Assembly (NCBI RefSeq): GCF_055900595.2
Contig: NZ_CM148325.1
Length of the DNA: 64,000 nt
Reading direction: 5' to 3' (one strand)
Positions 2,494 to 56,391 of this stretch are shown one piece after another (position 1 is the first letter of the stretch; each line of letters begins with the position of its first letter). The translations under genes were made by a program, and so were the position numbers. The notes below the pieces were generated by a model. That model was not told the origin of the DNA. It did no database searches and saw only the letters and a program-made list of their open reading frames with translations.

Positions 2494-3426
2494 ATGAACT
2501 CAATTTTTACCGAAGAGAATCTGTTGGCATTTACTACCGCTGCGCGTTTTAGCAGCTTCAGTAAAGCGGCAGACGAGTTGGGTTTAACCACTTCCGCCAT
2601 TAGCTACACCATCAAGCGAATGGAAACAGGGCTGGATGTGGTGCTGTTCACTCGCAGTACCCGCAGCATTGAGTTAACGGAGTCCGGGCGTTATTTTTTC
2701 CGCAAAGCTACCGACCTGCTGAATGATTTTCACGCCATCAAACGCAGCATCGATACTATTTCGCAGGGCATAGAAGCGCGTGTGCGTATTTGTATTAATC
2801 AGCTGCTTTATACGCCCAAACACACCGCACGCTTATTACAGGTACTGAAAAAGCAATTTCCAACCTGCCAGATTACCGTCACCACCGAAGTGTATAATGG
2901 CGTCTGGGATGCGATTATTAATAATCAGGCGAATATCGCTATCGGCGCACCCGACACGCTGCTGGACGGCGGCGGCATTGATTACACGGAGATTGGCGCG
3001 ATTCGCTGGGCTTTTGCTATCGCCCCGGATCACCCGTTAGCCTTTGTGCCGGAACCCATCGCCGAAAGCCAACTGCGTCTCTATCCTAATATCATGGTGG
3101 AAGACACCGCGCATACGATTAATAAAAAAGTGGGCTGGTTGCTGCATGGGCAGGAGTCGATTCTGGTGCCAGATTTCAACACCAAATGTCAGTGCCAGAT
3201 TTTAGGCGAAGGAATTGGTTTTTTGCCGGATTACATGGTCCGTGAGGCGATGGCGCAATCCCTGCTGGTTACCCGACAAATCCATAATCCGCGCCAGGAT
3301 TCACGCATGTTACTGGCGACCCAGCACTCTGCCACCGGTCAGGTGACGCAGTGGATTAAAAAACAATTTTCGCCAAATGGCATATTAACGGGGATCTATC
3401 AGGATTTACTGCATCGGGAGAATTAA
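2494..3426 (+). CDS. yahB: LysR-family transcriptional regulator YahB
   Basis: 310 aa; N-terminal LysR HTH (FTTAARFSSFSKAADELGLTTSAISYTIKRME) plus substrate-binding domain. Confidence 0.85.
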   Translation: MNSIFTEENLLAFTTAARFSSFSKAADELGLTTSAISYTIKRMETGLDVVLFTRSTRSIELTESGRYFFRKATDLLNDFHAIKRSIDTISQGIEARVRICINQLLYTPKHTARLLQVLKKQFPTCQITVTTEVYNGVWDAIINNQANIAIGAPDTLLDGGGIDYTEIGAIRWAFAIAPDHPLAFVPEPIAESQLRLYPNIMVEDTAHTINKKVGWLLHGQESILVPDFNTKCQCQILGEGIGFLPDYMVREAMAQSLLVTRQIHNPRQDSRMLLATQHSATGQVTQWIKKQFSPNGILTGIYQDLLHREN

Positions 3427-3467
3427 TCGCTGCCAACCTCCCGATGCGCTGTGAATAGCGGTTTACA

Positions 3468-4556
3468 TCAACCACCTGCTTTCATTACCCATTCAGAGAT
3501 AAATTTATTACCCGGTACCGGCGGAGAGTACAAATAGCCCTGCAAAAAGTGTACGCCTTTACCAATCATTAAATCCGCCTGTTCCTGAGTTTCTACCCCT
3601 TCCGCCACAATACTCAGACCAGGCTTACGCGCCAGTTCGACAATATTGTCCACAATATGACCGGAGATTTCGTCAACACTCGCCATTTGCACAAACGACT
3701 TGTCAATTTTAATAAAATCGACCGGAAACGCCTGCAGATAACGATAGGTCGCATAACCCGTACCAAAGTCATCCAGCGCAAAGGTAATGTTGTGCTGATG
3801 AAGGCTGTCAAATATCGCTCTGGCTTCTGGCGTTACCGGAATGGGGTTGCGTTCCGTTAGCTCAAGAACCAGCTTGATTTTATCGTTACCTAATTTCTTG
3901 ACCAGGTTCAGACACTCTTTTTCAAATCCTGCGGCCAAAAAACATCCTGCCGAGACGTTGATTCCAATATGGAAATTATCCGGCAGCAAATGTTTTACTG
4001 GCATCAGAATATCCGCAGTCTGTTTCATCAGCTGGCGAGTCATTATGACAATAAGACCGGATGACTCCGCCAGAGGAATAAACTGATCCGGTGGGATAAT
4101 TCCCGTTTGCGGATGTTCCCAGCGGACAAGCACTTCACAGCCCGTCAGTACCCCAGTCTGCGCGCAGAAAACCGGTTGGATCCACGGTTTGAATTCGTGA
4201 TTTTCCAACGCCAGACTGATGGCTTCAGGCGTGACGATATGGTGATAGTGATTATCATTAATATATTTGTGACTATTATTACCCGTGGCGGATATGATCT
4301 CCGGATTGTACTGAAAGAAAATATCCCGCCAGAAAGTAATATCGCTCTGAATCCCCAGTTTCTCAAAGAGCTGTTTCTTTTGATGTGAAATGGTCTTTGC
4401 ACTGCGATTTCTGTACTGTGATATTTCTGTTACAGACATTCCCTGCATCAGCAGCTTGAGTAGCAGTCGTTCTTTCTCGGATACGCTACCAGGCAATGAC
4501 AAATGAACCGTTGTACCGAACTCTTGCAGAAAAACACGAAAATCACATGAATTCAT
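3468..4556 (-). CDS. pdeL: c-di-GMP phosphodiesterase PdeL (LuxR-type HTH + EAL domain)
   Basis: N-terminal LuxR-type HTH (LLKLLMQGMSVTEISQYRNRSAKTISHQKK) and C-terminal EAL domain; start taken at MNSCDFRVFLQEF (362 aa). Confidence 0.85.
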   Translation of the reverse strand: MNSCDFRVFLQEFGTTVHLSLPGSVSEKERLLLKLLMQGMSVTEISQYRNRSAKTISHQKKQLFEKLGIQSDITFWRDIFFQYNPEIISATGNNSHKYINDNHYHHIVTPEAISLALENHEFKPWIQPVFCAQTGVLTGCEVLVRWEHPQTGIIPPDQFIPLAESSGLIVIMTRQLMKQTADILMPVKHLLPDNFHIGINVSAGCFLAAGFEKECLNLVKKLGNDKIKLVLELTERNPIPVTPEARAIFDSLHQHNITFALDDFGTGYATYRYLQAFPVDFIKIDKSFVQMASVDEISGHIVDNIVELARKPGLSIVAEGVETQEQADLMIGKGVHFLQGYLYSPPVPGNKFISEWVMKAGG

Positions 4557-5431
4557 GAACACACCTTTTATCTTTTATCGCTGTTCAGTATGAGTGATTA
4601 CCTGTGGATTCCTGAGCACACATAAGGGGTAACCATAAACATTAGCGATGCCATACGTATAACATCCCACATCACTATCAAGAAGATTATCTTTACCTCT
4701 GATGCTCGCTCAAAAACAGTTACGCTAAATACCTTAAAAAGGTAATCACAAGTCAAACTCAGGAGATAATCACGCAAGAATGCAATATTAAAATTCAGAT
4801 ACTCATTTTTGGTAATAAAGAAGTAGTTGGACTATTTCGATATTTATAATTTCCCACTACGTATTGACGCCCATTCATGAGTAAAGGCGCATTATATGAA
4901 TTTAACAATCCAGATCAACTGAAAATACCTCAACCTCATAAACACATAGCGTCAACATTCAATGACATAATGAGTAAAGATGTTGGTTATGCATACACGT
5001 CATTACTCTATGCCAATCCCTTAACAACCTGCTTTTTAAGACTGAATCCATTCAGCAATAGATAGCCAACATTATAACAATGACAATAAAAACAATATTT
5101 AAAACAATCAATAAAATATCAGACACAAACAATTAAACCTTAAACAACAAACAGTTACATTGATTTTAGTTGATTTGCGCTATGCGTTCCCCATGAATAA
5201 AGCGTCATTTCAAATTAGCACCAATATTTACATTAAATAAGACTAAGCTTATTGAACATTCACAACAGTCCAAACGTAGTGTTTGGGCTTCAATAGTTCT
5301 TTTCTTTTTTATTATCTGTTGCCTGGCAATCATCAATCGATACTAAGGGCTTAACTGTACAGATATAACGTATCAAGAGGTAAGAGAAACCGCGCCATAT
5401 GCAGACATGGCGCGGTTTTATGCAATAACAA

Positions 5432-7465
5432 TCACGCGTCCGGGAACATCACGCTATGGCCCGGCGCTTCACGATGGAGATGGATAAAGTTAAGGTGCCG
5501 CTCGTACTGGTCGAGAATATCGGTGATCACCTGCTCTTTGCTGTAGTCCATCAGGTCGTTACCCTGGCTGCCTTCTAACAGGAAGGTTTCCAGCCGGTAG
5601 TAGGTCGATTTACCGCTACGTGCGCGGTAGGTAAAGCCCGGCACCGAATATTGCTGCGGCCAAATCTGATAGACAAAGTTTTGCTCTTCGCCCATATGCA
5701 CCAGCAAATCCAGATGCCCCAGATGTTCGCCCTCTTCCGGCGGCAGGCTTTTTAGCTCGACGTACGCACCGCGCAACCGCAGTTCCTGCGCCACTTCTTC
5801 CATTGCCGGATAACAGACGGTTTCCATCATCTGTTTGGTGTAACGCGTGCCCGGATAATTCATCAGGCGCGAGAGACGTTTTTTCCAGCTCAGGCGATCC
5901 TGAAGCCCCAGCGGTCGCGGTGCGGTATCACGGTTGGCACTTTCACGGCGGTAATCTTCTACCTTCAGAGATTTATACAATCCCGCCATCACGAAGAAAA
6001 TCACAAAGCTGAACGGCAGCCCCATGATTACCGTGGTGTTTTGCAGCGCGGATATCCCGTTGGTCATTAACATACCGAGCGTCAGCAGACCAATGGCAAC
6101 CGACCAGAAGACACGCAGCCAGCCCGGCGCGTCGCTGTTGATATCTTTAAGCTGCGAGGTGAAATTCCCCAGCACCAGCGCGCCGGAGTCCGCCGAGGTC
6201 ACATAAAACAGCAGGCCAGTAATGGTGGCCACGGAGGCGCTAAAGGTAAATGCCGGATACTGCGCCAGCAGGCTGTAGAAGCCGCGCTCCGGATGGACCA
6301 TCGCTTCCTCGGCAAATGCCGCGCCGCCGTGGATGATTTCATACAGCGCGCTATTGCCGAATACCGAGAGCCATAACAGCGTGAAGGTAAACGGAATAAT
6401 CAACGTCCCCAGTACGAACTGGCGAATGGTGCGCCCACGCGAGATACGCGCCAGGAACAGGCCAACAAACGGCGACCAGGCTACCCACCATGCCCAGAAA
6501 AAGAGCGTCCAGTTATTCATCCACTCAACCGGGCGGTCAAAGGCGAAACTGTTGAGCGTCATGCCCATAAAGCGATTCACATAGTCGCCGACGTTCAGCA
6601 CCAGCGCATTGAGCAGGAACGAGGTGTCGCCCATAAACAGCACGAACAGAATCAGCCCCAGCGCCAGTGCGACGTTGAGTTCAGACAATACGCGAATGCC
6701 TTTGTCGACACCAGATGTCACCGAGATAGTCGCGATGATTACCGACAGCGCGATCAGCACCGCTTTCGCCGCCATTGAATCCGGGATATCAAACAGTACG
6801 CTCAGGCCATAGTTAAGCTGCACCACGCCAATGCCGAGCGTGGTGGCAATCCCGAAGATGGTGCCGATCACCGCTGCAATATCCACCGAGTGACCAATCG
6901 GCCCGTTAATCCGTTTACCGAAAATCGGATACAGCGCCGAGCGGATGGTGAGCGGCAAATTATAACGATAGCTGAAGTATCCGAGCGCCATGCCCATCAG
7001 CGCATACATCGACCAGCCCGTTAAGCCGTAGTGAAACAGCGTCCAGACCATCGCCTGACGCGCGGCCTCAATCGTCTGACCCGCGCCTTCCGGCGGCTGC
7101 ATATACTGCGTTACCGGTTCGGCTACGGAGAAGAACATCAGGTCGATACCGATCCCGGCGGCAAACAGCATCGCCGCCCAGCTCAGCAGGCTGAACTCAG
7201 GCTTAGACTGCTCGGGCCCGAGTTTCACCGAACCAAAGCGCGAACAGGCAATGCAGACCACAAAGACAATATAGAGCGTTGCCGCTAACAGATAGTACCA
7301 ACCAAAAGTTTTAGAAACCCAGTCCAGCGTGCGGCCAATCCACAGAGCCGAGAAGTCGCGAAACAGGATCGTTGTCAGGGAAAACAACAAAATCAGTCCG
7401 GCGGAAGTATAAAACACCACCGGATTGATTTTGTCCTTTTCCCTGCTGTGCGAAAGGTCTGTCAT
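5432..7465 (-). CDS. betT: High-affinity choline transporter BetT (BCCT family)
   Basis: 677 aa; polytopic membrane protein with a BCCT-like tryptophan-rich core and hydrophilic C-terminal tail; divergent from betI. Confidence 0.9.
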   Translation of the reverse strand: MTDLSHSREKDKINPVVFYTSAGLILLFSLTTILFRDFSALWIGRTLDWVSKTFGWYYLLAATLYIVFVVCIACSRFGSVKLGPEQSKPEFSLLSWAAMLFAAGIGIDLMFFSVAEPVTQYMQPPEGAGQTIEAARQAMVWTLFHYGLTGWSMYALMGMALGYFSYRYNLPLTIRSALYPIFGKRINGPIGHSVDIAAVIGTIFGIATTLGIGVVQLNYGLSVLFDIPDSMAAKAVLIALSVIIATISVTSGVDKGIRVLSELNVALALGLILFVLFMGDTSFLLNALVLNVGDYVNRFMGMTLNSFAFDRPVEWMNNWTLFFWAWWVAWSPFVGLFLARISRGRTIRQFVLGTLIIPFTFTLLWLSVFGNSALYEIIHGGAAFAEEAMVHPERGFYSLLAQYPAFTFSASVATITGLLFYVTSADSGALVLGNFTSQLKDINSDAPGWLRVFWSVAIGLLTLGMLMTNGISALQNTTVIMGLPFSFVIFFVMAGLYKSLKVEDYRRESANRDTAPRPLGLQDRLSWKKRLSRLMNYPGTRYTKQMMETVCYPAMEEVAQELRLRGAYVELKSLPPEEGEHLGHLDLLVHMGEEQNFVYQIWPQQYSVPGFTYRARSGKSTYYRLETFLLEGSQGNDLMDYSKEQVITDILDQYERHLNFIHLHREAPGHSVMFPDA

Positions 7466-30131: not shown

Positions 30132-31274
30132 ATGACAAATAAACACCCATCATTGTTTTCTCCTTTTATGCTGACAGAAAAAATAAAGCTACGTAATCGT
30201 ATCGTTATGGCTCCTATGACAACCTGGTCAGCTAATCCTGATGGAACCATCTCTGAGCAAGAACTCGAATTTTATAAACGTCGCTCACAAAATGTTGGTT
30301 TAGTAATAACAGGATGCACCTATGTCACGCCAAGCGGCATTGGGTTTACTCATGAATTTGCCGCGTATGACGACCGTTTCATTAACAGCCTTGAAAAGTT
30401 AGCTGCTGCAGCCAAAAGTGGCGGTGCTCCGGCTATTTTGCAGATTTTCCACGCCGGTAATAAAGCCATCCCGGAGCTTGTGCCAAATTACGATGTTATT
30501 AGTGCCAGCGCATCAAGCGTAAAATCTGGTGACTTTATGAAGAGAGTGGTACAAAGCAGGGAAATGACTGAAAACGAAATTCAGGAAACCATTAGAGCAT
30601 TCGGAGATGTCACAAAAAGGGCGATTAAAGCAGGTTTTGATGGCGTTGAACTTCATGGTGCGCACGGATTCCTTCTGCAGAATTTCTTCTCCCCTCTATT
30701 TAACCAGCGTAATGACCGATGGGGAGGAGATCTTGAAGGACGTATGCGCTTCCCGCTGGCCGTATTACAGGAAGTAAAAAATGTAGTCTATGAATATGCG
30801 ACAAAGCCCTTTGCCATCGGTTACAGAATATCTCCTGAAGAATCTGTAACAGGGGGTCTGCGGATAGAGGATACTTATAAACTCCTTGATCGGCTCATTT
30901 CATCCGGTATTTCGTATATACATACCTCGCTGGTCAGTATTAACGATAGCTACCCTGTTGAGTCGCCAAATGGCCCCCGAACTATTGAATTGATTTTAGA
31001 TCATATTGCAGGCAGAGTGCCGGTAATCGCCGCAGGTAAAATACGCACACCGTCTCAGGCTCAAGAAGCAATTTCCGCTGGCCTGCCACTTGTTGCAATC
31101 GGTAAAGGGCTGGTAATAAATCCAGAATGGGTGACTTTAGCTGAATCAGGTAGAAGTCATGAAATTCAAACAGCCCTTAATCCACAACGCGTTCCTGAAT
31201 TAACCATTCCGGATAAACTATGGGATCAAATTCAGGCATCGAAAGGAACTGGCTGGTTTCCGTTAATGGATTAA
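30132..31274 (+). CDS. NADH:flavin oxidoreductase (Old Yellow Enzyme family)
   Basis: 380 aa; OYE motifs (MAPMTTW, LHGAHGFLLQNFFSP...NxRxDxWGG). Confidence 0.8.
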   Translation: MTNKHPSLFSPFMLTEKIKLRNRIVMAPMTTWSANPDGTISEQELEFYKRRSQNVGLVITGCTYVTPSGIGFTHEFAAYDDRFINSLEKLAAAAKSGGAPAILQIFHAGNKAIPELVPNYDVISASASSVKSGDFMKRVVQSREMTENEIQETIRAFGDVTKRAIKAGFDGVELHGAHGFLLQNFFSPLFNQRNDRWGGDLEGRMRFPLAVLQEVKNVVYEYATKPFAIGYRISPEESVTGGLRIEDTYKLLDRLISSGISYIHTSLVSINDSYPVESPNGPRTIELILDHIAGRVPVIAAGKIRTPSQAQEAISAGLPLVAIGKGLVINPEWVTLAESGRSHEIQTALNPQRVPELTIPDKLWDQIQASKGTGWFPLMD

Positions 31275-31746
31275 ATATCTATTACTCTCCCGAGAGTAAA
31301 ACTATCAAACCAATGAGTAACCGATACAGCCTCGCAAATTCTTTCAGATAATTAACCCGTCACTGCGGCACGTTCTCTCATAAGGCGTGCCTGCTGTGTA
31401 ATCCAGTATGTATCCGGCATACTTGACGGTTTAATAGAACTCAATTCCTTTCCCAGGTTACCAACAACGATATCTTGTATAACACCCCAGGAGATACGAC
31501 ATTATGATGAGATGAGGTATGCTCCTCAGCGCCAATCAACGCCAGGGCTGGGCCAGTTTTGAGATCAGACTCATTCCCGGACTGACTTCAGGCGACATAT
31601 ATCAATGACATTGGGGCAATAAAAGATAGCCGATGTAATACATCTATTCAAATTTGTGATACATGTCAAAAAATTGGTTGACCAAACTCGTTATTTATAT
31701 AAGGGCACTTACGAAGTGCACTCTTTTTTAAAGCGAGGAAGTACCA

Positions 31747-31848
31747 ATGAAAGAGAATAAAGTACAGCAAATCAGTCATAAACTGATTAATATCGTTGTT
31801 TTGGTAGCAATTGTAGAATACGCCTATTTATTCCTCCATTTCTATTAA
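31747..31848 (+). CDS. ykgR: Small membrane protein (33 aa), YkgR-like
   Basis: SD GAGGAAG 7 nt before ATG; MKENKVQQISHKLINIVVLVAIVEYAYLFLHFY with one hydrophobic helix. Not in the ORF track because under 60 aa. Confidence 0.5.
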   Translation: MKENKVQQISHKLINIVVLVAIVEYAYLFLHFY

Positions 31849-32183
31849 TAACGGCAATAAACTGTTCATTTCAGCAATATTCAAAAGATGCATCCTCTCC
31901 CTTTTTTTTAAGTAATTATTATATCCGTGGGAGAGGAATACACGCTGTCAGGTAATCAATCAAACTGCGATAAATCATCGGCCAGTAAAGTGGAGATAGC
32001 CTCCATTCTCGAAAAATTCATACTCTCAGCGAAACCATCATCAATCACTCATCCAGGCGTTTATGGGAGCGTCGCCAATGGCTGCTAACAATGCCAGACT
32101 TCCCCGTTGCCGAAATTCCACATACCACAAATGGTCACAGGGATTGGGTGTTGAAATGATCCGGATGAGCATGTATCTTTATA

Positions 32184-32201
32184 GTTATGTTATAACATAA
32201 C
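32184..32201. promoter_or_regulatory. Zur box (zinc-uptake-regulator operator) upstream of ykgM
   Basis: Perfect 18-bp palindrome GTTATGTTATAACATAAC 12 bp before the ykgM start; ykgM-ykgO are the zinc-independent L31/L36 paralogs known to be Zur-repressed. Confidence 0.7.
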
Positions 32202-32212
32202 AGGTAAAAATG

Positions 32213-32476
32213 ATGAAACCCAATATCCATCCTGAGTATCGTACTGTGGTGTTCCATGACACCAGTGTTGATGAGTACTTTAAAATCGGCTCGACTATCA
32301 AAACAGACCGTGAGATTGAGCTGGATGGCGTAACGTATCCGTACGTGACAATTGATGTCTCTTCGAAATCGCACCCGTTCTATACAGGGAAGCTGAGAAC
32401 AGTGGCATCAGAAGGAAATGTTGCACGGTTCACCCAACGTTTTGGTCGTTTTGTTAGCACGAAAAAGGGGGCGTGA
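32213..32476 (+). CDS. ykgM: 50S ribosomal protein L31 type B (zinc-independent paralog)
   Basis: [59 protein letters not shown]... lacks the Zn-binding cysteines. Confidence 0.9.
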
Positions 32477-32616
32477 TGAAAGTCCTTAACTCTCTGCGTA
32501 CCGCAAAAGAACGCCATCCAGACTGTCAGATTGTGAAGCGAAAAGGACGGCTGTATGTGATTTGTAAATCTAATCCACGTTTTAAGGCCGTTCAGGGGCG
32601 TAAGAAAAAGCGTTGA
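32476..32616 (+). CDS. ykgO: 50S ribosomal protein L36 paralog (46 aa)
   Basis: ATG overlaps the ykgM stop (ATGA); [46 protein letters not shown]. Not in the ORF track because under 60 aa. Confidence 0.85.
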
Positions 32617-32644
32617 TTCATAATTCGCCGGATTAACGATATTT

Positions 32645-32697
32645 GTCTGATTAATAATCAGACCGGATTAATGTTGGTGTGTTTATAACACCAACAT
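32645..32697 (+). terminator. Tandem hairpins after ykgO (possible terminator)
   Basis: GTCTGATT-AAT-AATCAGAC (8-bp stem) then ATGTTGGTGT-GTTTATA-ACACCAACAT (10-bp stem), followed by TTAATTTCC. Confidence 0.4.
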
Positions 32698-33134
32698 TAA
32701 TTTCCTGGGGATATATTCTTCCTGTTCATTTAAAGCCAACTGCCTGACGTTTCTCTCCGAATATTCCATTATATTAATGTTGATTTGTTGACCAGCTTCG
32801 CCCCTGTATGCTGGTATCAACTCTCTTTTAGACTGAACAAGCCACTCCGCCCCCTCCCTTTGCGGAGCAGCCTGCATTTACACTCAAACTGTTAAGATGA
32901 TAAATGTGGTAAATCTGTTGGTACTAACATAAAAACGTTTACGCCACAGGAACAGCCTGATCCACCAGTAACCCCATCGCCGACGTTCGAGTGCCAGTTA
33001 GAGTAACGCGCACAGATGACTGCACGCAGTGCCCTGTCAAAGAGGCCATCGTTCCTGTGACAGCTGGCAGCCTTCGTTTAACTTCACTTAATTTGGCTCT
33101 TGGGGGGCTTACCGAACAGGGTAATGACTCCAAC

Positions 33135-33638
33135 TTATTGATAGTGTTTTATGTTCAGATAATGCCCGATGACTTTGTCATGCAGCTCCACCGATTTTGA
33201 GAACGACAGCGACTTCCGTCCCAGCCGTGCCAGGTGCTGCCTCAGATTCAGGTTATGCCGCTCAATTCGCTGCGTATATCGCTTGCTGATTACGTGCAGC
33301 TTTCCCTTCAGGCGGGATTCATACAGCGGCCAGCCATCCGTCATCCATATCACCACGTCAAAGGGTGACAGCAGGCTCATAAGACGCCCCAGCGTCGCCA
33401 TAGTGCGTTCACCGAATACGTGCGCAACAACCGTCTTCCGGAGCCTGTCATACGCGTAAAACAGCCAGCGCTGGCGCGATTTAGCCCCGACATAGCCCCA
33501 CTGTTCGTCCATTTCCGCGCAGACGATGACGTCACTGCCCGGCTGTATGCGCGAGGTTACCGACTGCGGCCTGAGTTTTTTAAGTGACGTAAAATCGTGT
33601 TGAGGCCAACGCCCATAATGCGGGCAGTTGCCCGGCAT
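33135..33638 (-). CDS. insB: IS1 transposase InsB (expressed as InsAB' by frameshift)
   Basis: 167 aa, [64 protein letters not shown]... Confidence 0.95.
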
Positions 33639-33949: not shown

Positions 33950-36949
33950 TTGATTGGCAAATTTCGTTTGTTACCGAAAAAATTAACCACAAAGAAAAAA
34001 CATGAATCCCAAAATGGACACGTCCACTTTTCTAATCCTAAACGAGCAGCCGACCATTTATTTAATAATTTTGATCTGATACCAGAGTTTCGTATTATTG
34101 GTGACTTCCCGGTTGATAGTCACATTATCTCTGCACTATGGATTAACATGGTCGGGCATAAATTTGATGCCAGCTTAGATAACTGTTGCTATGGCGCGCG
34201 GCTAAAGCGTATTCGTAATGATGAATTATTTAGCAATGAGCAGGATAATCCATTCCATATCAGTGCAGTGGGTTCTTTTAGCCCCTACTTCCAGCCCTAC
34301 CAAAAATGGCGTGGTGATGGCTTAAAAGCTATACGTGACGAGTTGGAAAAAGATCGTGACATTATCGCCGCCTCACTGGATTTAAAAAGTTACTATCATT
34401 TTATTGATCCACTGGCTATAACCTCTGATGATCTCTATAACACACTAAACATAAAACTGACTGAGGATGAAAAAGCGTTTACTGCACAGTTAGCAGTATT
34501 CTTAAAGCACTGGTCTGACGGCGCAGCGGCATTTGGAAAGAAAATAGCGTACAAAACACCTGTTATTAATGGTGGTCTGGTCATTGGATTAACAGCCAGT
34601 CGGATCATTTCAAATATATTGCTACACCATTGGGATAAATTAGTCATTGAAAAACTATCACCAATTCACTACGGTCGTTATGTCGATGATATGTTCCTTG
34701 TAATACGCGATACAGGGAAAATTACTAATAATCACGAATTTATGTTATTGCTGCAAGATAGGCTTGGCAATGATTGCGTTTATTTGAAAAACGAGCAAAA
34801 ACAAATATGGCAAATACAGCAGGGCGAGCATTTCCAGGGTAAGACCACCATCCAGTTACAATCCGATAAGCAAAAACTTTTCGTGCTTCAAGGGAGGGCT
34901 GGAATAGACCTGCTCGACAGTATCGAAAAGGAGATCTACGAGCTTTCTAGTGAACACCGCTTGATGCCTTCACCGGATCAACTGGAACACTCAACCGCAG
35001 CTAAAGTCCTTTCCGCTGCCGGTAGTGTAGGTGAAAATGCCGATACTCTGCGCCGTGCAGATGGATTAACCATTCGTCGTTTGGGCTGGTCACTGCAATT
35101 ACGCTACGTTGAAACACTGGCACGAGATCTGCCTCCAAGTGAATGGAAAGAACAGCGGGAAGAGTTTTATCAGTTTGCCTACAACCATATTCTTAGGGCT
35201 GATAATCTATTTGCACATTTTAGTTATCTGCCAAGGCTGCTTGGCTTTGCTATCAGTATGAATGAATGGCAGCACGCGGAAACAATTGTACTTAAAGCTT
35301 ACGAATCCATCAACCTGTTGGCATCGGTGATTACTTCAGGTAAGGAAGTGAATATAAATGGTTGCAAAACTCGAGCAGTAAATGATCTTTGGCGCTGTAT
35401 AAAAGGCACATTAAGCTGGCTATTTGTTGATGCAGCGACACGATATTACAGTCCTGACAGATTATTTCTTGATAAACGTTCAAAGAAAGAAGAGTGCCTT
35501 GCGGATACATTTTTTAATCATATTTCACAAAGTCTGACGAATCTAAAGGATTTACTGGATCTTCGCTTTGATTCAGCAGATTTTTATTTAAAAGCGCCAT
35601 TGGTAGCTCGAGCTGATTTAGCAAAGGAACCTTATAAACAGATCGTAAAGAGTCAGTCGGCAGAAAAACTTGTTAATCAGCGTGATAGTAAAAAAGAAGT
35701 TAAAATACTGAAATTAATGAGCGACTCATCGCTTATTGATATTGACGTTATTAAGCTATTTTTGAAATCAACCAAGAATACCCGACTGGAAAAAGTGGCT
35801 AAAGGAAATCGTAAGAACGAAAGTTACCTACCTTACATTTTCCCTACACGTCCTTTAACACCCGCTGAAATATCAGAACTGGCCCCCGAATGTGTTGGAT
35901 TACCCTCCACATCCGACAAAAAACCAGATGAGAGACCGTCCACCATTTGGGCAAAATATACTCAAGCATTACGCGGAGTATGGATCAAACCGACGTTGCT
36001 AGCATCGGAGCAGGACTCAGATGAAGCGACAAAAAAAGCTCGGCCTAAGAAATTCATTCATATTGGCACAGACAGGAAACATAAAGTTGTCGTTGCGCTA
36101 ACCAGCATTAAAACAGAGGAGGACGACTGGGCTAAAATGGCCTGCAATAAATCTAACTTGTCCCGTTCAAGGTACCAGCGGATTTCTGAACTGGTTAATG
36201 CAACATTGAAACTATCTCCTAAACCTGATTATGTTTTATTCCCTGAGCTTTCAATCCCGTTACGCTGGGTTAACAGTATTGCTGATCGTTTGAGTTCGGC
36301 GGGTATCAGTCTAATTGCGGGAACAGAATACCGCCACTTAGACGATAATCAACTGAAGAGTGAGGCCGTACTTGTCCTTTCAGATAACAGACTCGGCTAT
36401 CCAGCGAGTGTCAAAATATGGCAACCCAAGCTGGAACCCGCCGTAGGTGAAGATGAGGCATTATTTTCAACTTATGGTAAGTCTTGGGACTCGACACTTA
36501 ATGTTAAACAACGTAAGCCGGTATATATTCATCATGGCGTCAATTTTGGCGTTATGATTTGCTCTGAACTCCAGAATAGTAAAGCGAGGATCCGTTTTCA
36601 GGGCGCACTCGATGCATTAATGGTATTGAGCTGGAATAAAGATCTAGATACGTTTGCATCGTTGATTGAATCAGCAGCGCTGGATATTCATGCCTATACT
36701 ATTTTAGTGAATAACCGAAAATACGGCGATAGTCGCGTACGTTCCCCGGCAAAAGAACCCTTTATGCGTGATATTGCTCGTGTGAAGGGCGGTGATAATG
36801 ACTTTGTGGTCGCTGCAACGCTGGATATCGACTCGTTAAGGGCATTTCAGAGCAGGGCAAAACGCTGGCCTAAAGGCGGCGATAAATTCAAACCGTTACC
36901 TGAAGGATTCCAGTTGGCAAAGAACCGCAAAAAGCTACCGCCAAAATAA
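33950..36949 (+). CDS. Reverse transcriptase with C-terminal nitrilase (C-N hydrolase) domain; defence-associated RT, DRT type 1 / UG1-like; possibly 5'-truncated by IS1
   Basis: RT motifs in order: A (ASLDLKSYYHFID), B (GGLVIGLTASRIISNILL), C (YGRYVDDMFLV). C-terminus has a nitrilase-type Glu/Cys pattern (YVLFPELSIP ... GVMICSELQ). ORF begins at TTG 63 bp after IS1 and the frame is open into IS1. Confidence 0.8.
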   Translation: MIGKFRLLPKKLTTKKKHESQNGHVHFSNPKRAADHLFNNFDLIPEFRIIGDFPVDSHIISALWINMVGHKFDASLDNCCYGARLKRIRNDELFSNEQDNPFHISAVGSFSPYFQPYQKWRGDGLKAIRDELEKDRDIIAASLDLKSYYHFIDPLAITSDDLYNTLNIKLTEDEKAFTAQLAVFLKHWSDGAAAFGKKIAYKTPVINGGLVIGLTASRIISNILLHHWDKLVIEKLSPIHYGRYVDDMFLVIRDTGKITNNHEFMLLLQDRLGNDCVYLKNEQKQIWQIQQGEHFQGKTTIQLQSDKQKLFVLQGRAGIDLLDSIEKEIYELSSEHRLMPSPDQLEHSTAAKVLSAAGSVGENADTLRRADGLTIRRLGWSLQLRYVETLARDLPPSEWKEQREEFYQFAYNHILRADNLFAHFSYLPRLLGFAISMNEWQHAETIVLKAYESINLLASVITSGKEVNINGCKTRAVNDLWRCIKGTLSWLFVDAATRYYSPDRLFLDKRSKKEECLADTFFNHISQSLTNLKDLLDLRFDSADFYLKAPLVARADLAKEPYKQIVKSQSAEKLVNQRDSKKEVKILKLMSDSSLIDIDVIKLFLKSTKNTRLEKVAKGNRKNESYLPYIFPTRPLTPAEISELAPECVGLPSTSDKKPDERPSTIWAKYTQALRGVWIKPTLLASEQDSDEATKKARPKKFIHIGTDRKHKVVVALTSIKTEEDDWAKMACNKSNLSRSRYQRISELVNATLKLSPKPDYVLFPELSIPLRWVNSIADRLSSAGISLIAGTEYRHLDDNQLKSEAVLVLSDNRLGYPASVKIWQPKLEPAVGEDEALFSTYGKSWDSTLNVKQRKPVYIHHGVNFGVMICSELQNSKARIRFQGALDALMVLSWNKDLDTFASLIESAALDIHAYTILVNNRKYGDSRVRSPAKEPFMRDIARVKGGDNDFVVAATLDIDSLRAFQSRAKRWPKGGDKFKPLPEGFQLAKNRKKLPPK

Positions 36950-55389: not shown

Positions 55390-55565
55390 TGGTTAACCTC
55401 CGCGAACTCCTTCATGAAACGCGCCAGCGGTTGTACGCATGGCGATTGATACCCGTCGCGATAAAACGTCACTCGGTTGTGAGACACGCTTTCGACAGTA
55501 ACGAGTGCTCCGTGGGCATCTTTGTAGCGTTTTTGAGGTTGTGGTGTTCCTGTCGGCTTAAACAT
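55386..55565 (-). CDS. Hypothetical small protein (~59 aa)
   Basis: Start taken at MFKPTGTPQPQ with GGAGG SD; the longer 88-aa ORF overlaps the upstream gene. Confidence 0.35.
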   Translation of the reverse strand: MFKPTGTPQPQKRYKDAHGALVTVESVSHNRVTFYRDGYQSPCVQPLARFMKEFAEVNQ

Positions 55566-56391
55566 GGACCGCCTCCAGACGCTTGGCGAGCCAGCGTTGC
55601 GACAGGCGGGTGAGTTCTCCTTTACGCTGCTCATATTCCATGCCCATATCAATTAACGTGATATTGGTGCTTTCGAGATATGAGAGGTGCTCAAGCTGTT
55701 CTGCGTTCATATGGTCGCGAGGTTCGCCAGAATAGCCATTTATCCGCGCCCACTGTTTAGCAGTTAGCCCACCAAGAACGATACGAGAAATCATATTGCT
55801 CTCGTTTGTGTAGTGGTGTTGCTGCGTCGTTTTACCCATCTCGGCACGGGCCATATTCAGCGCATCGCACATTGGCTTAAAGTTGTTTGCGGCACTGATA
55901 CGGGCTTTTAGCTGGCGACGATAGCGGGCGGCGATTTCAGGCACGCTACGCTGTAATTCTTCCTCGCACTGGATGAAATAACGGCGGATAGCGCGCCCCT
56001 GATCATTGCGTTCGATCATTGCCAGTTCTTTCGCCATTCCGACACTTAACAGATAGTCTTTGCCGGGTCTGCCAGACTGCTTAATCTTGCTGTAAGCCGC
56101 GTCATTCGGGCTTTTCCCCAAATTTGGGGAAATTGTTTTATGGACTGAGTAATCGTGCCCAATGGTGAAGTCATATTCAGAGATGCGATCAGTGATCCAT
56201 GTAGAGAAGTCTTTTCCCACGCCCAACGCTTTGTGTAACGCTTTTGCGCTAACAATATTGGTTTCACGCCCACCGATATGACCAGGAATAACCGGGACAA
56301 TTGCGGCAAATTCATTACCGTTAATTGTGCCCAGAGAGGCGTTCAGATGAGGGGCAGCCTCAGAAATTAATCTGCTTTTTTCGATGTTCAT
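55558..56391 (-). CDS. Phage antirepressor-like protein (AntA/KilAC-type)
   Basis: 277 aa; LHKALGVGKDFSTWITDRISEYDFTIGHDY resembles the AntA N-terminal region (recalled); basic C-terminal helical region. Confidence 0.45.
   Translation of the reverse strand: MNIEKSRLISEAAPHLNASLGTINGNEFAAIVPVIPGHIGGRETNIVSAKALHKALGVGKDFSTWITDRISEYDFTIGHDYSVHKTISPNLGKSPNDAAYSKIKQSGRPGKDYLLSVGMAKELAMIERNDQGRAIRRYFIQCEEELQRSVPEIAARYRRQLKARISAANNFKPMCDALNMARAEMGKTTQQHHYTNESNMISRIVLGGLTAKQWARINGYSGEPRDHMNAEQLEHLSYLESTNITLIDMGMEYEQRKGELTRLSQRWLAKRLEAVHV

Follow-up and report, generated by a model that had tools for sequence, protein, structure and literature searches.

The 64,000-nucleotide stretch of DNA analyzed here (hereafter, the window) is a segment of the Escherichia coli chromosome. 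Positions 31600-32700 match 5088 of 5426 complete E. coli genomes, mostly at 95-99% identity and in eight of them at 99% or above. The interval on which we focused, 31747-32201, opens with the first base of ykgR and closes with the final base of an 18-bp palindrome, the Zur box, that precedes ykgM and ykgO; 335 bp of it are spacer, belonging to neither ykgR nor the box. In the closest match, Z0117EC0005 (99.9%), RefSeq places ykgR, ykgM, ykgO, and ykgL at exactly corresponding coordinates, and the same four genes are annotated at corresponding coordinates in K-12 MG1655. The order and strand of ykgR-ykgM-ykgO are shared with K-12, UTI89, KV7, E. albertii, and L111, a divergent Escherichia genome that is labelled E. 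coli. The upstream neighbor differs: an intact NADH-dependent flavin oxidoreductase gene is found in the window, whereas K-12 carries only an oxidoreductase remnant, beside an inverse-autotransporter pseudogene and IS3. Many E. coli records contain a second place that matches part of the query 31600..32250; strain UTME-3 has an N-terminally truncated ykgR fragment in another neighborhood, near tRNA-Thr and proA.

The ykgR gene (31747..31848, plus strand) begins with ATG, has 33 codons, and ends with TAA; its translation is MKENKVQQISHKLINIVVLVAIVEYAYLFLHFY. A Shine-Dalgarno sequence, GAGGA (31735..31739, +), can be read from the sequence 7 nt before the ATG and is invariant in all of the aligned Escherichia sequences. 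By mean Kyte-Doolittle hydropathy, residues 1-12 of the product are polar (-1.59) and residues 13-31 hydrophobic (+2.06). The hydrophobicity of this second stretch would be sufficient for one membrane span, suggesting the layout of a single-span membrane protein. Start and stop codons, the GAGGA, and the hydropathy profile all agree with the first-pass annotation, which had described a 33-residue ORF with a good Shine-Dalgarno sequence and a single transmembrane segment. That annotation called the product “ykgR-like”; it is YkgR itself, as indicated by a match over residues 1-33 to positions 1-33 of NF041474, the equivalog for “small membrane protein YkgR” in NCBIfam (76.6 bits; cut-off, 40), and by the gene name that RefSeq gives at the homologous position. 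The ORF found no match in our local copy of Pfam, but the precomputed annotation of a YkgR homologue, P0006, names the Pfam family PF28062:YkgR. It had also been supposed that a small protein such as this is routinely missed by ORF callers. For ykgR, this is now untrue, because a curated HMM and RefSeq annotation exist, the latter including ykgR in every E. coli record listed.

Comparison with the annotated gene of K-12 revealed a protein of equal length (33 residues), encoded at the same place upstream of ykgM and identical at 32 of 33 residues. The one difference, leucine here and phenylalanine in K-12 at residue 19, is a conservative substitution, and the Leu19 variant is already represented in RefSeq (WP_032183332.1). 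At the nucleotide level, the two genes differ at no first, no second, and three third codon positions, corresponding to two silent changes and the Phe19-to-Leu replacement. Within E. coli as a whole, the gene is nearly invariant, its differences falling mostly at third codon positions, and the ykgR sequence is present in 5070 of the 5426 complete genomes. Conservation extends upstream: positions 31633..31802, comprising about 115 bp of upstream DNA and the first 56 bp of ykgR, are 100% identical to K-12, compared with about 95% in the surrounding DNA, and good conservation of the upstream block of ykgR is seen in Escherichia generally. Both the reading frame and the Shine-Dalgarno sequence are kept in three other Escherichia lineages, so the small ORF is conserved. 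By tblastn, both E. albertii (85%) and L111 (88%) have an intact ykgR upstream of ykgM, with conservative changes such as V to I and I to V. The gene encodes an inner-membrane protein of 33 residues with a single predicted span, and it has a Shine-Dalgarno sequence and a conserved upstream region of its own.

Beyond E. coli, the reach of this family is very limited. When 1.84 billion representative proteins were searched exhaustively, only eight YkgR matches emerged, seven of which, judged from their sequences, look like truncated or chimeric forms of the E. coli protein; the eighth, P0006, has 32 residues, is 74% identical, and is encoded on a contig with upstream genes similar to those in the window. 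In that search, YkgR homologues were found in Escherichia only. Even there, ykgR is dispensable in some strains: in the O157:H7 strain TX 265-1 (locus 3148..6325), ykgR is frameshifted, and the IS66-family element ISEc8, with tnpA, tnpB, and a transposase gene, lies between ykgR and an intact Zur box and ykgM. Remarks in reviews suggest that YkgR levels respond to growth conditions. In K-12, translation and membrane insertion of YkgR have been described with plasmid expression and in vitro (PMC7549839; PMC10470546), the signal recognition particle (SRP) cross-links to YkgR after translation (PMC7549839), and the intramembrane protease RseP cleaves it in vivo as well as in vitro (PMC10470546). 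YkgR serves as a model substrate for studies of the insertion and turnover of small membrane proteins.

Downstream of the spacer, ykgM (32213..32476, +) encodes a type B L31 protein (NF002462, 122.9 bits, cut-off 86; PF01197), and ykgO (32476..32616, +) a type B L36 protein (NF002021, 91 bits, cut-off 70; PF00444). The stop codon of ykgM and the start codon of ykgO overlap by one base (ATGA). YkgM is 100% identical to the K-12 protein and is without any cysteine, consistent with the zinc-free “C-minus” form. YkgO has two cysteines; relative to canonical L36, the pair that is missing is presumably the first CxxC. A consensus scan placed a sigma-70 promoter for ykgMO at 32151..32179 (+), with TTGAAA at 32151-32156, a 17-nt spacer, and TATCTT at 32174-32179, and a genomic-SELEX table of RpoD promoters in K-12 lists equal hexamers and spacing for ykgMO (PMC3946193). 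The Zur box starts 5 bp past the -10 hexamer, and from its end to the ATG of ykgM there are 11 bp. Because it begins so close to the -10 hexamer, the box should cover the transcription start, which we infer to lie at about 32186. A short Shine-Dalgarno sequence for ykgM, AGG (32203..32205, +), is located just past the box and is invariant together with it.

The Zur box itself (32184..32201) is an 18-bp perfect palindrome, GTTATGTTATAACATAAC, whose symmetry ends at positions 32183/32202. It can be read as two overlapping GTTAT-N3-ATAAC dimer sites, GTTAT-GTT-ATAAC (32184-32196) and GTTAT-AAC-ATAAC (32189-32201). A listing of inverted repeats with a minimum arm of 12 nt omitted the box, presumably because its arms are 9 nt long; a pattern search and a script both confirmed it. 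The 18-mer is the sole match in the window even when three mismatches are allowed (0.01 expected). From the crystal structure of Zur bound to DNA, Gilston et al. (2014) derived the motif RNNNY-xxx-RNNNY for each Zur dimer (PMC4219657). All ten constrained positions of the crystallography-derived motif RxxxYRxxR*YxxYRxxxY fit the box, and 18 of its 18 bases are self-complementary. The purine/pyrimidine skeleton of this motif is matched at 247 positions in the window, only one of which, the Zur box, is self-complementary at 18/18; the next best reaches 14/18. Agreement with an older 23-bp consensus, GAAATGTTATA-N-TATAACATTTC, is less complete. By our own count, 17 of 23 positions agree in the best register; the 15-bp core of that consensus, TGTTAT-NN-TATAACA, is found exactly on the minus strand at 32188-32202, but its outer GAAA/TTTC arms are absent. 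The term “perfect”, therefore, applies to the structural 18-bp definition only.

Judged by its sequence and position, the palindrome serves ykgMO as its Zur operator, as the first-pass annotation had proposed: it is an exact palindrome, and the identical 18-mer occurs in K-12, where the operator, designated L31p, has been measured (PMC4219657). No difference from the K-12 operator, which has the same two-dimer RNNNY-xxx-RNNNY architecture, is seen in the 18-bp core, in the hexamers of the promoter, or in how far the core lies from the start codon of ykgM. Only position 32183, directly 5' of the core, differs, being A here and G in K-12; this A could slightly change the affinity of Zur. Among the four E. 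coli Zur operators, L31p provides the best match to the motif (PMC4219657), and it is the tightest Zur site measured, with an apparent Kd of 0.025e-18 M^2 and 560-fold repression in vivo (PMC4219657). The region protected by Zur is about 30 bp (PMC4219657).

We aligned the ykgR-ykgM spacer of three E. coli sequences (this window, K-12, and UTI89) with those of L111 and E. albertii. The longest invariant run in this alignment is a 21-nt block, GTTATGTTATAACATAACAGG, that contains the Zur box; conservation in the rest of the spacer is moderate to poor, with indels of 93 and 14 bp. An exact scan for the 18-mer, using one genome per species, identified at least 120 loci (L008-L127), which by their record titles belong almost entirely to alpha-, beta-, and gamma-proteobacteria. 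Genera among the matches listed include Pelagibacter, Bradyrhizobium, Thauera, Acinetobacter, and relatives of Vibrio, and several copies occur in some genomes, the Moritella strains, for instance, having three or four. On each side of the listed loci, we chose the first ORF to reach 80 codons or more, looking no farther than 150 bp, and compared the resulting 144 products with Pfam. Among the matches listed, the most frequent families were cobW/COG0523 GTPases (25), Fur-family proteins (14), presumably Zur itself, and ZnuA (8), accompanied by TonB-dependent receptors (8), L31 (7), ABC ATPases (6), FolE2 (5), DUF1826 (3), ZinT (2), and ZrgA (2), as well as Peptidase_M15 proteins. This is the classic Zur regulon. 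As judged by this census, the exact 18-mer is a reliable marker of Zur regulons in alpha-, beta-, and gamma-proteobacteria alike. Also among the matches listed, it precedes genes for L31B/L36B in Moritella, Aliivibrio, Enterovibrio, Acinetobacter, and Morganella, in every case without ykgR.

These observations fit a switch in which, under zinc sufficiency, zinc-loaded Zur would bind the box as a pair of dimers that lie on opposite DNA faces, occupying GTTAT-N3-ATAAC elements offset by 5 bp. A footprint of about 30 bp centered on the box would extend from roughly 32178 to 32207, reaching over the tail of the -10 hexamer as well as the start site and the ribosome-binding site, and RNA polymerase would therefore be blocked. 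When zinc is scarce, Zur would lose its zinc and leave the DNA, allowing transcription of ykgM-ykgO; in ribosomes, the zinc-binding L31 and L36 would then give way to L31B and L36B, freeing zinc while sustaining translation. Of the elements of this model, the sequences, families, positions, conservation, and regulon context were computed here, while Zur binding, the dimer-of-dimers arrangement, and the 560-fold repression are taken from published work on the K-12 operator, which is identical. A zinc-free paralogue is likewise repressed by Zur through a promoter box in the case of Y. pestis ykgM-rpmJ2 and B. subtilis ytiA (PMC2706843), and, in Y. pestis, footprints and primer extension place the Zur sites over the -10 elements of target promoters, that of ykgM included (PMC2706843). 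L31B, in addition, feeds back on the expression of rpmE (PMC9825181). The Zur switch of ykgMO is a textbook example of zinc sparing by the exchange of ribosomal proteins.

We considered whether either element could be something other than what it appears. The six-frame list for this region shows many ORFs of 20-50 codons, and this, together with the lack of a match in the local Pfam copy, is what one might cite for regarding the 33 codons as a chance open frame in AT-rich intergenic DNA and no gene at all. Against this stand the full-length match to a curated equivalog HMM, the PF28062:YkgR assignment of the homologue P0006, the retention of frame and Shine-Dalgarno sequence in three other lineages with changes that are mostly silent or conservative, and the fact that YkgR has been expressed and studied (PMC7549839; PMC10470546). 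A chance ORF is effectively already refuted, and we attach almost no weight to it. Comparably negligible is the prospect that the palindrome is a site for a regulator other than Zur, such as Fur, or a hairpin in the ykgM leader RNA, or a product of chance. It is true that boxes of the Fur family are all AT-rich inverted repeats, and, by our own arithmetic, about 0.24 perfect 18-bp palindromes of any kind are expected per 64 kb. A second one is in fact present at 56114..56131 (TTTCCCCAAATTTGGGGAAA context), inside a 277-codon ORF (55558..56391, -), and is unrelated to Zur. Because perfect 18-bp palindromes are not very rare, the significance of the Zur box lies in its sequence and position, not in symmetry alone. 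The identical 18-mer, however, has as its neighbors, among the matches listed, mostly zinc-homeostasis families and not iron genes, Zur binding has been measured on the identical K-12 operator (PMC4219657), and the block containing the palindrome is the most conserved part of the spacer. As for a leader RNA structure, RNA beginning at 32186 is not unusually stable (z-score +0.65), and we rejected this candidate. We found no evidence that contradicts the identification of ykgR and of the Zur operator.

Whether these elements belong together is a separate question. The first-pass annotation had presented the small gene and the box under a single title, which implies one unit ahead of ykgM-ykgO; both of its parts are real, but a single unit is not what the evidence indicates. 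We are highly confident that the interval consists of two neighboring, independent, and known Escherichia elements, (i) ykgR and (ii) the ykgMO control region. A single zinc-responsive unit, in which ykgR would be controlled by Zur or co-transcribed with ykgMO, or in which YkgR would have a zinc-related role, would accord with the adjacency of ykgR and ykgMO on the same strand, with the maintenance of this arrangement in E. coli, E. albertii, and L111, and with a consensus scan that showed no terminator-like site between ykgR and ykgM. Nevertheless, we judge such a unit very improbable. There is no second Zur-like site in the window, and none precedes ykgR, the 14/18 skeleton match lying elsewhere; ykgMO is served by a separate promoter, which immediately precedes the box; and the spacer is poorly conserved, with large indels. 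Further, the two elements part company in other genomes: homologues of YkgR were found only in Escherichia (eight representatives among 1.84 billion proteins), none of the box-L31B/L36B loci listed from the five genera named above has YkgR, and in TX 265-1 ISEc8 separates a frameshifted ykgR from an intact box and ykgM.

A looser connection, in which transcription from a ykgR promoter would read through the terminator-poor 335-bp spacer into ykgM-ykgO, seems to us only slightly less improbable, its small chance arising because no canonical terminator was found between ykgR and ykgM. This possibility draws on the absence of a terminator and on the conserved block upstream of ykgR; its setting would be a ykgR promoter downstream of a conserved CRP-like element, with ykgR itself between two hairpins whose pairing is in large part retained in other Escherichia species. 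Were it true, the zinc-free ribosomal proteins would receive a second input, dependent on carbon source or stationary phase, and Zur at 32184-32201 would act as a roadblock and not only as a promoter occluder.

The remaining elements around these genes are tentative. Upstream of ykgR, CRP-like half-sites, TGTGA-N6-TCAAA (31655..31670, +), represent the one match in the window to TGTGA-N6-TCACA with at most one mismatch, compared with 2.07 expected by chance. These half-sites are kept, with varying spacers, in E. albertii, L111, and L007; in view of the chance expectation, we dropped the element as a claim of a site and retain it as a conserved motif only. Just 5' of the ykgR Shine-Dalgarno sequence, a possible hairpin, GCACTT-ACG-AAGTGC followed by a run of six T (31705..31728, +), is the sole terminator-like match in 31400-32900, where 1.2 are expected. 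In E. albertii and L007, one of its pairs changes from A-T to G-C or G-T. Its folding z-score is only -0.5, and five distinct sequences were available for comparison; we rejected it as a significant structure. A candidate 3' structure begins 44 nt past the ykgR stop codon (31892..31937, +), where UCCUCUCCC and GGGAGAGGA could form a 9-bp stem around a 28-nt loop. Its predicted energy is -16.6 kcal/mol (z-score -2.78 versus shuffled sequences), it is followed by no U-tract, and, as we read the alignment, G-U wobbles preserve much of the stem in L111 and E. albertii. An Rfam scan of 31200-33000 yielded nothing meaningful, the single match having E = 0.9. Also rejected as a gene was a GTG-initiated ORF in the spacer (31927..32088, 53 residues), which has no family match and whose frame is hit near the start by the 93-bp indel of E. 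albertii and L111. On the far side of ykgMO, a 14-nt perfect inverted repeat, ATTAATGTTGGTGT and ACACCAACATTAAT with a 7-nt loop (32667..32701), lies between the convergent genes ykgO and ykgL and may be a shared two-way terminator.

Neither ykgR nor the Zur operator of ykgMO is new; both are already known, having been annotated and experimentally characterized in K-12. Their practical value here is that of a positive control, a 33-codon gene and a transcription-factor operator having been recognized from sequence alone.

Farther downstream, the window departs from the reference strains. The ykgL gene is shortened (32683..32877, 64 codons), and a 999-residue ORF (33950..36949, +) encodes a defense-associated reverse transcriptase fused to a nitrilase, matching the PADLOC model RT_UG5-nitrilase (PDLC03780) with 955.8 bits (E = 7.7e-288); NCBIfam gave only a weak match to retron reverse transcriptases. 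Both Z0117EC0005 and K-12 have ecpR at this place, about 1 kb downstream of ykgL, and because the reference strains have ecpR there, the reverse transcriptase-nitrilase gene looks like an inserted defense gene. Between ykgL and the reverse transcriptase gene lies an ORF for an IS1-family transposase (33135..33638, -; NF033558, 145.6 bits), which may mark the boundary of the insertion.
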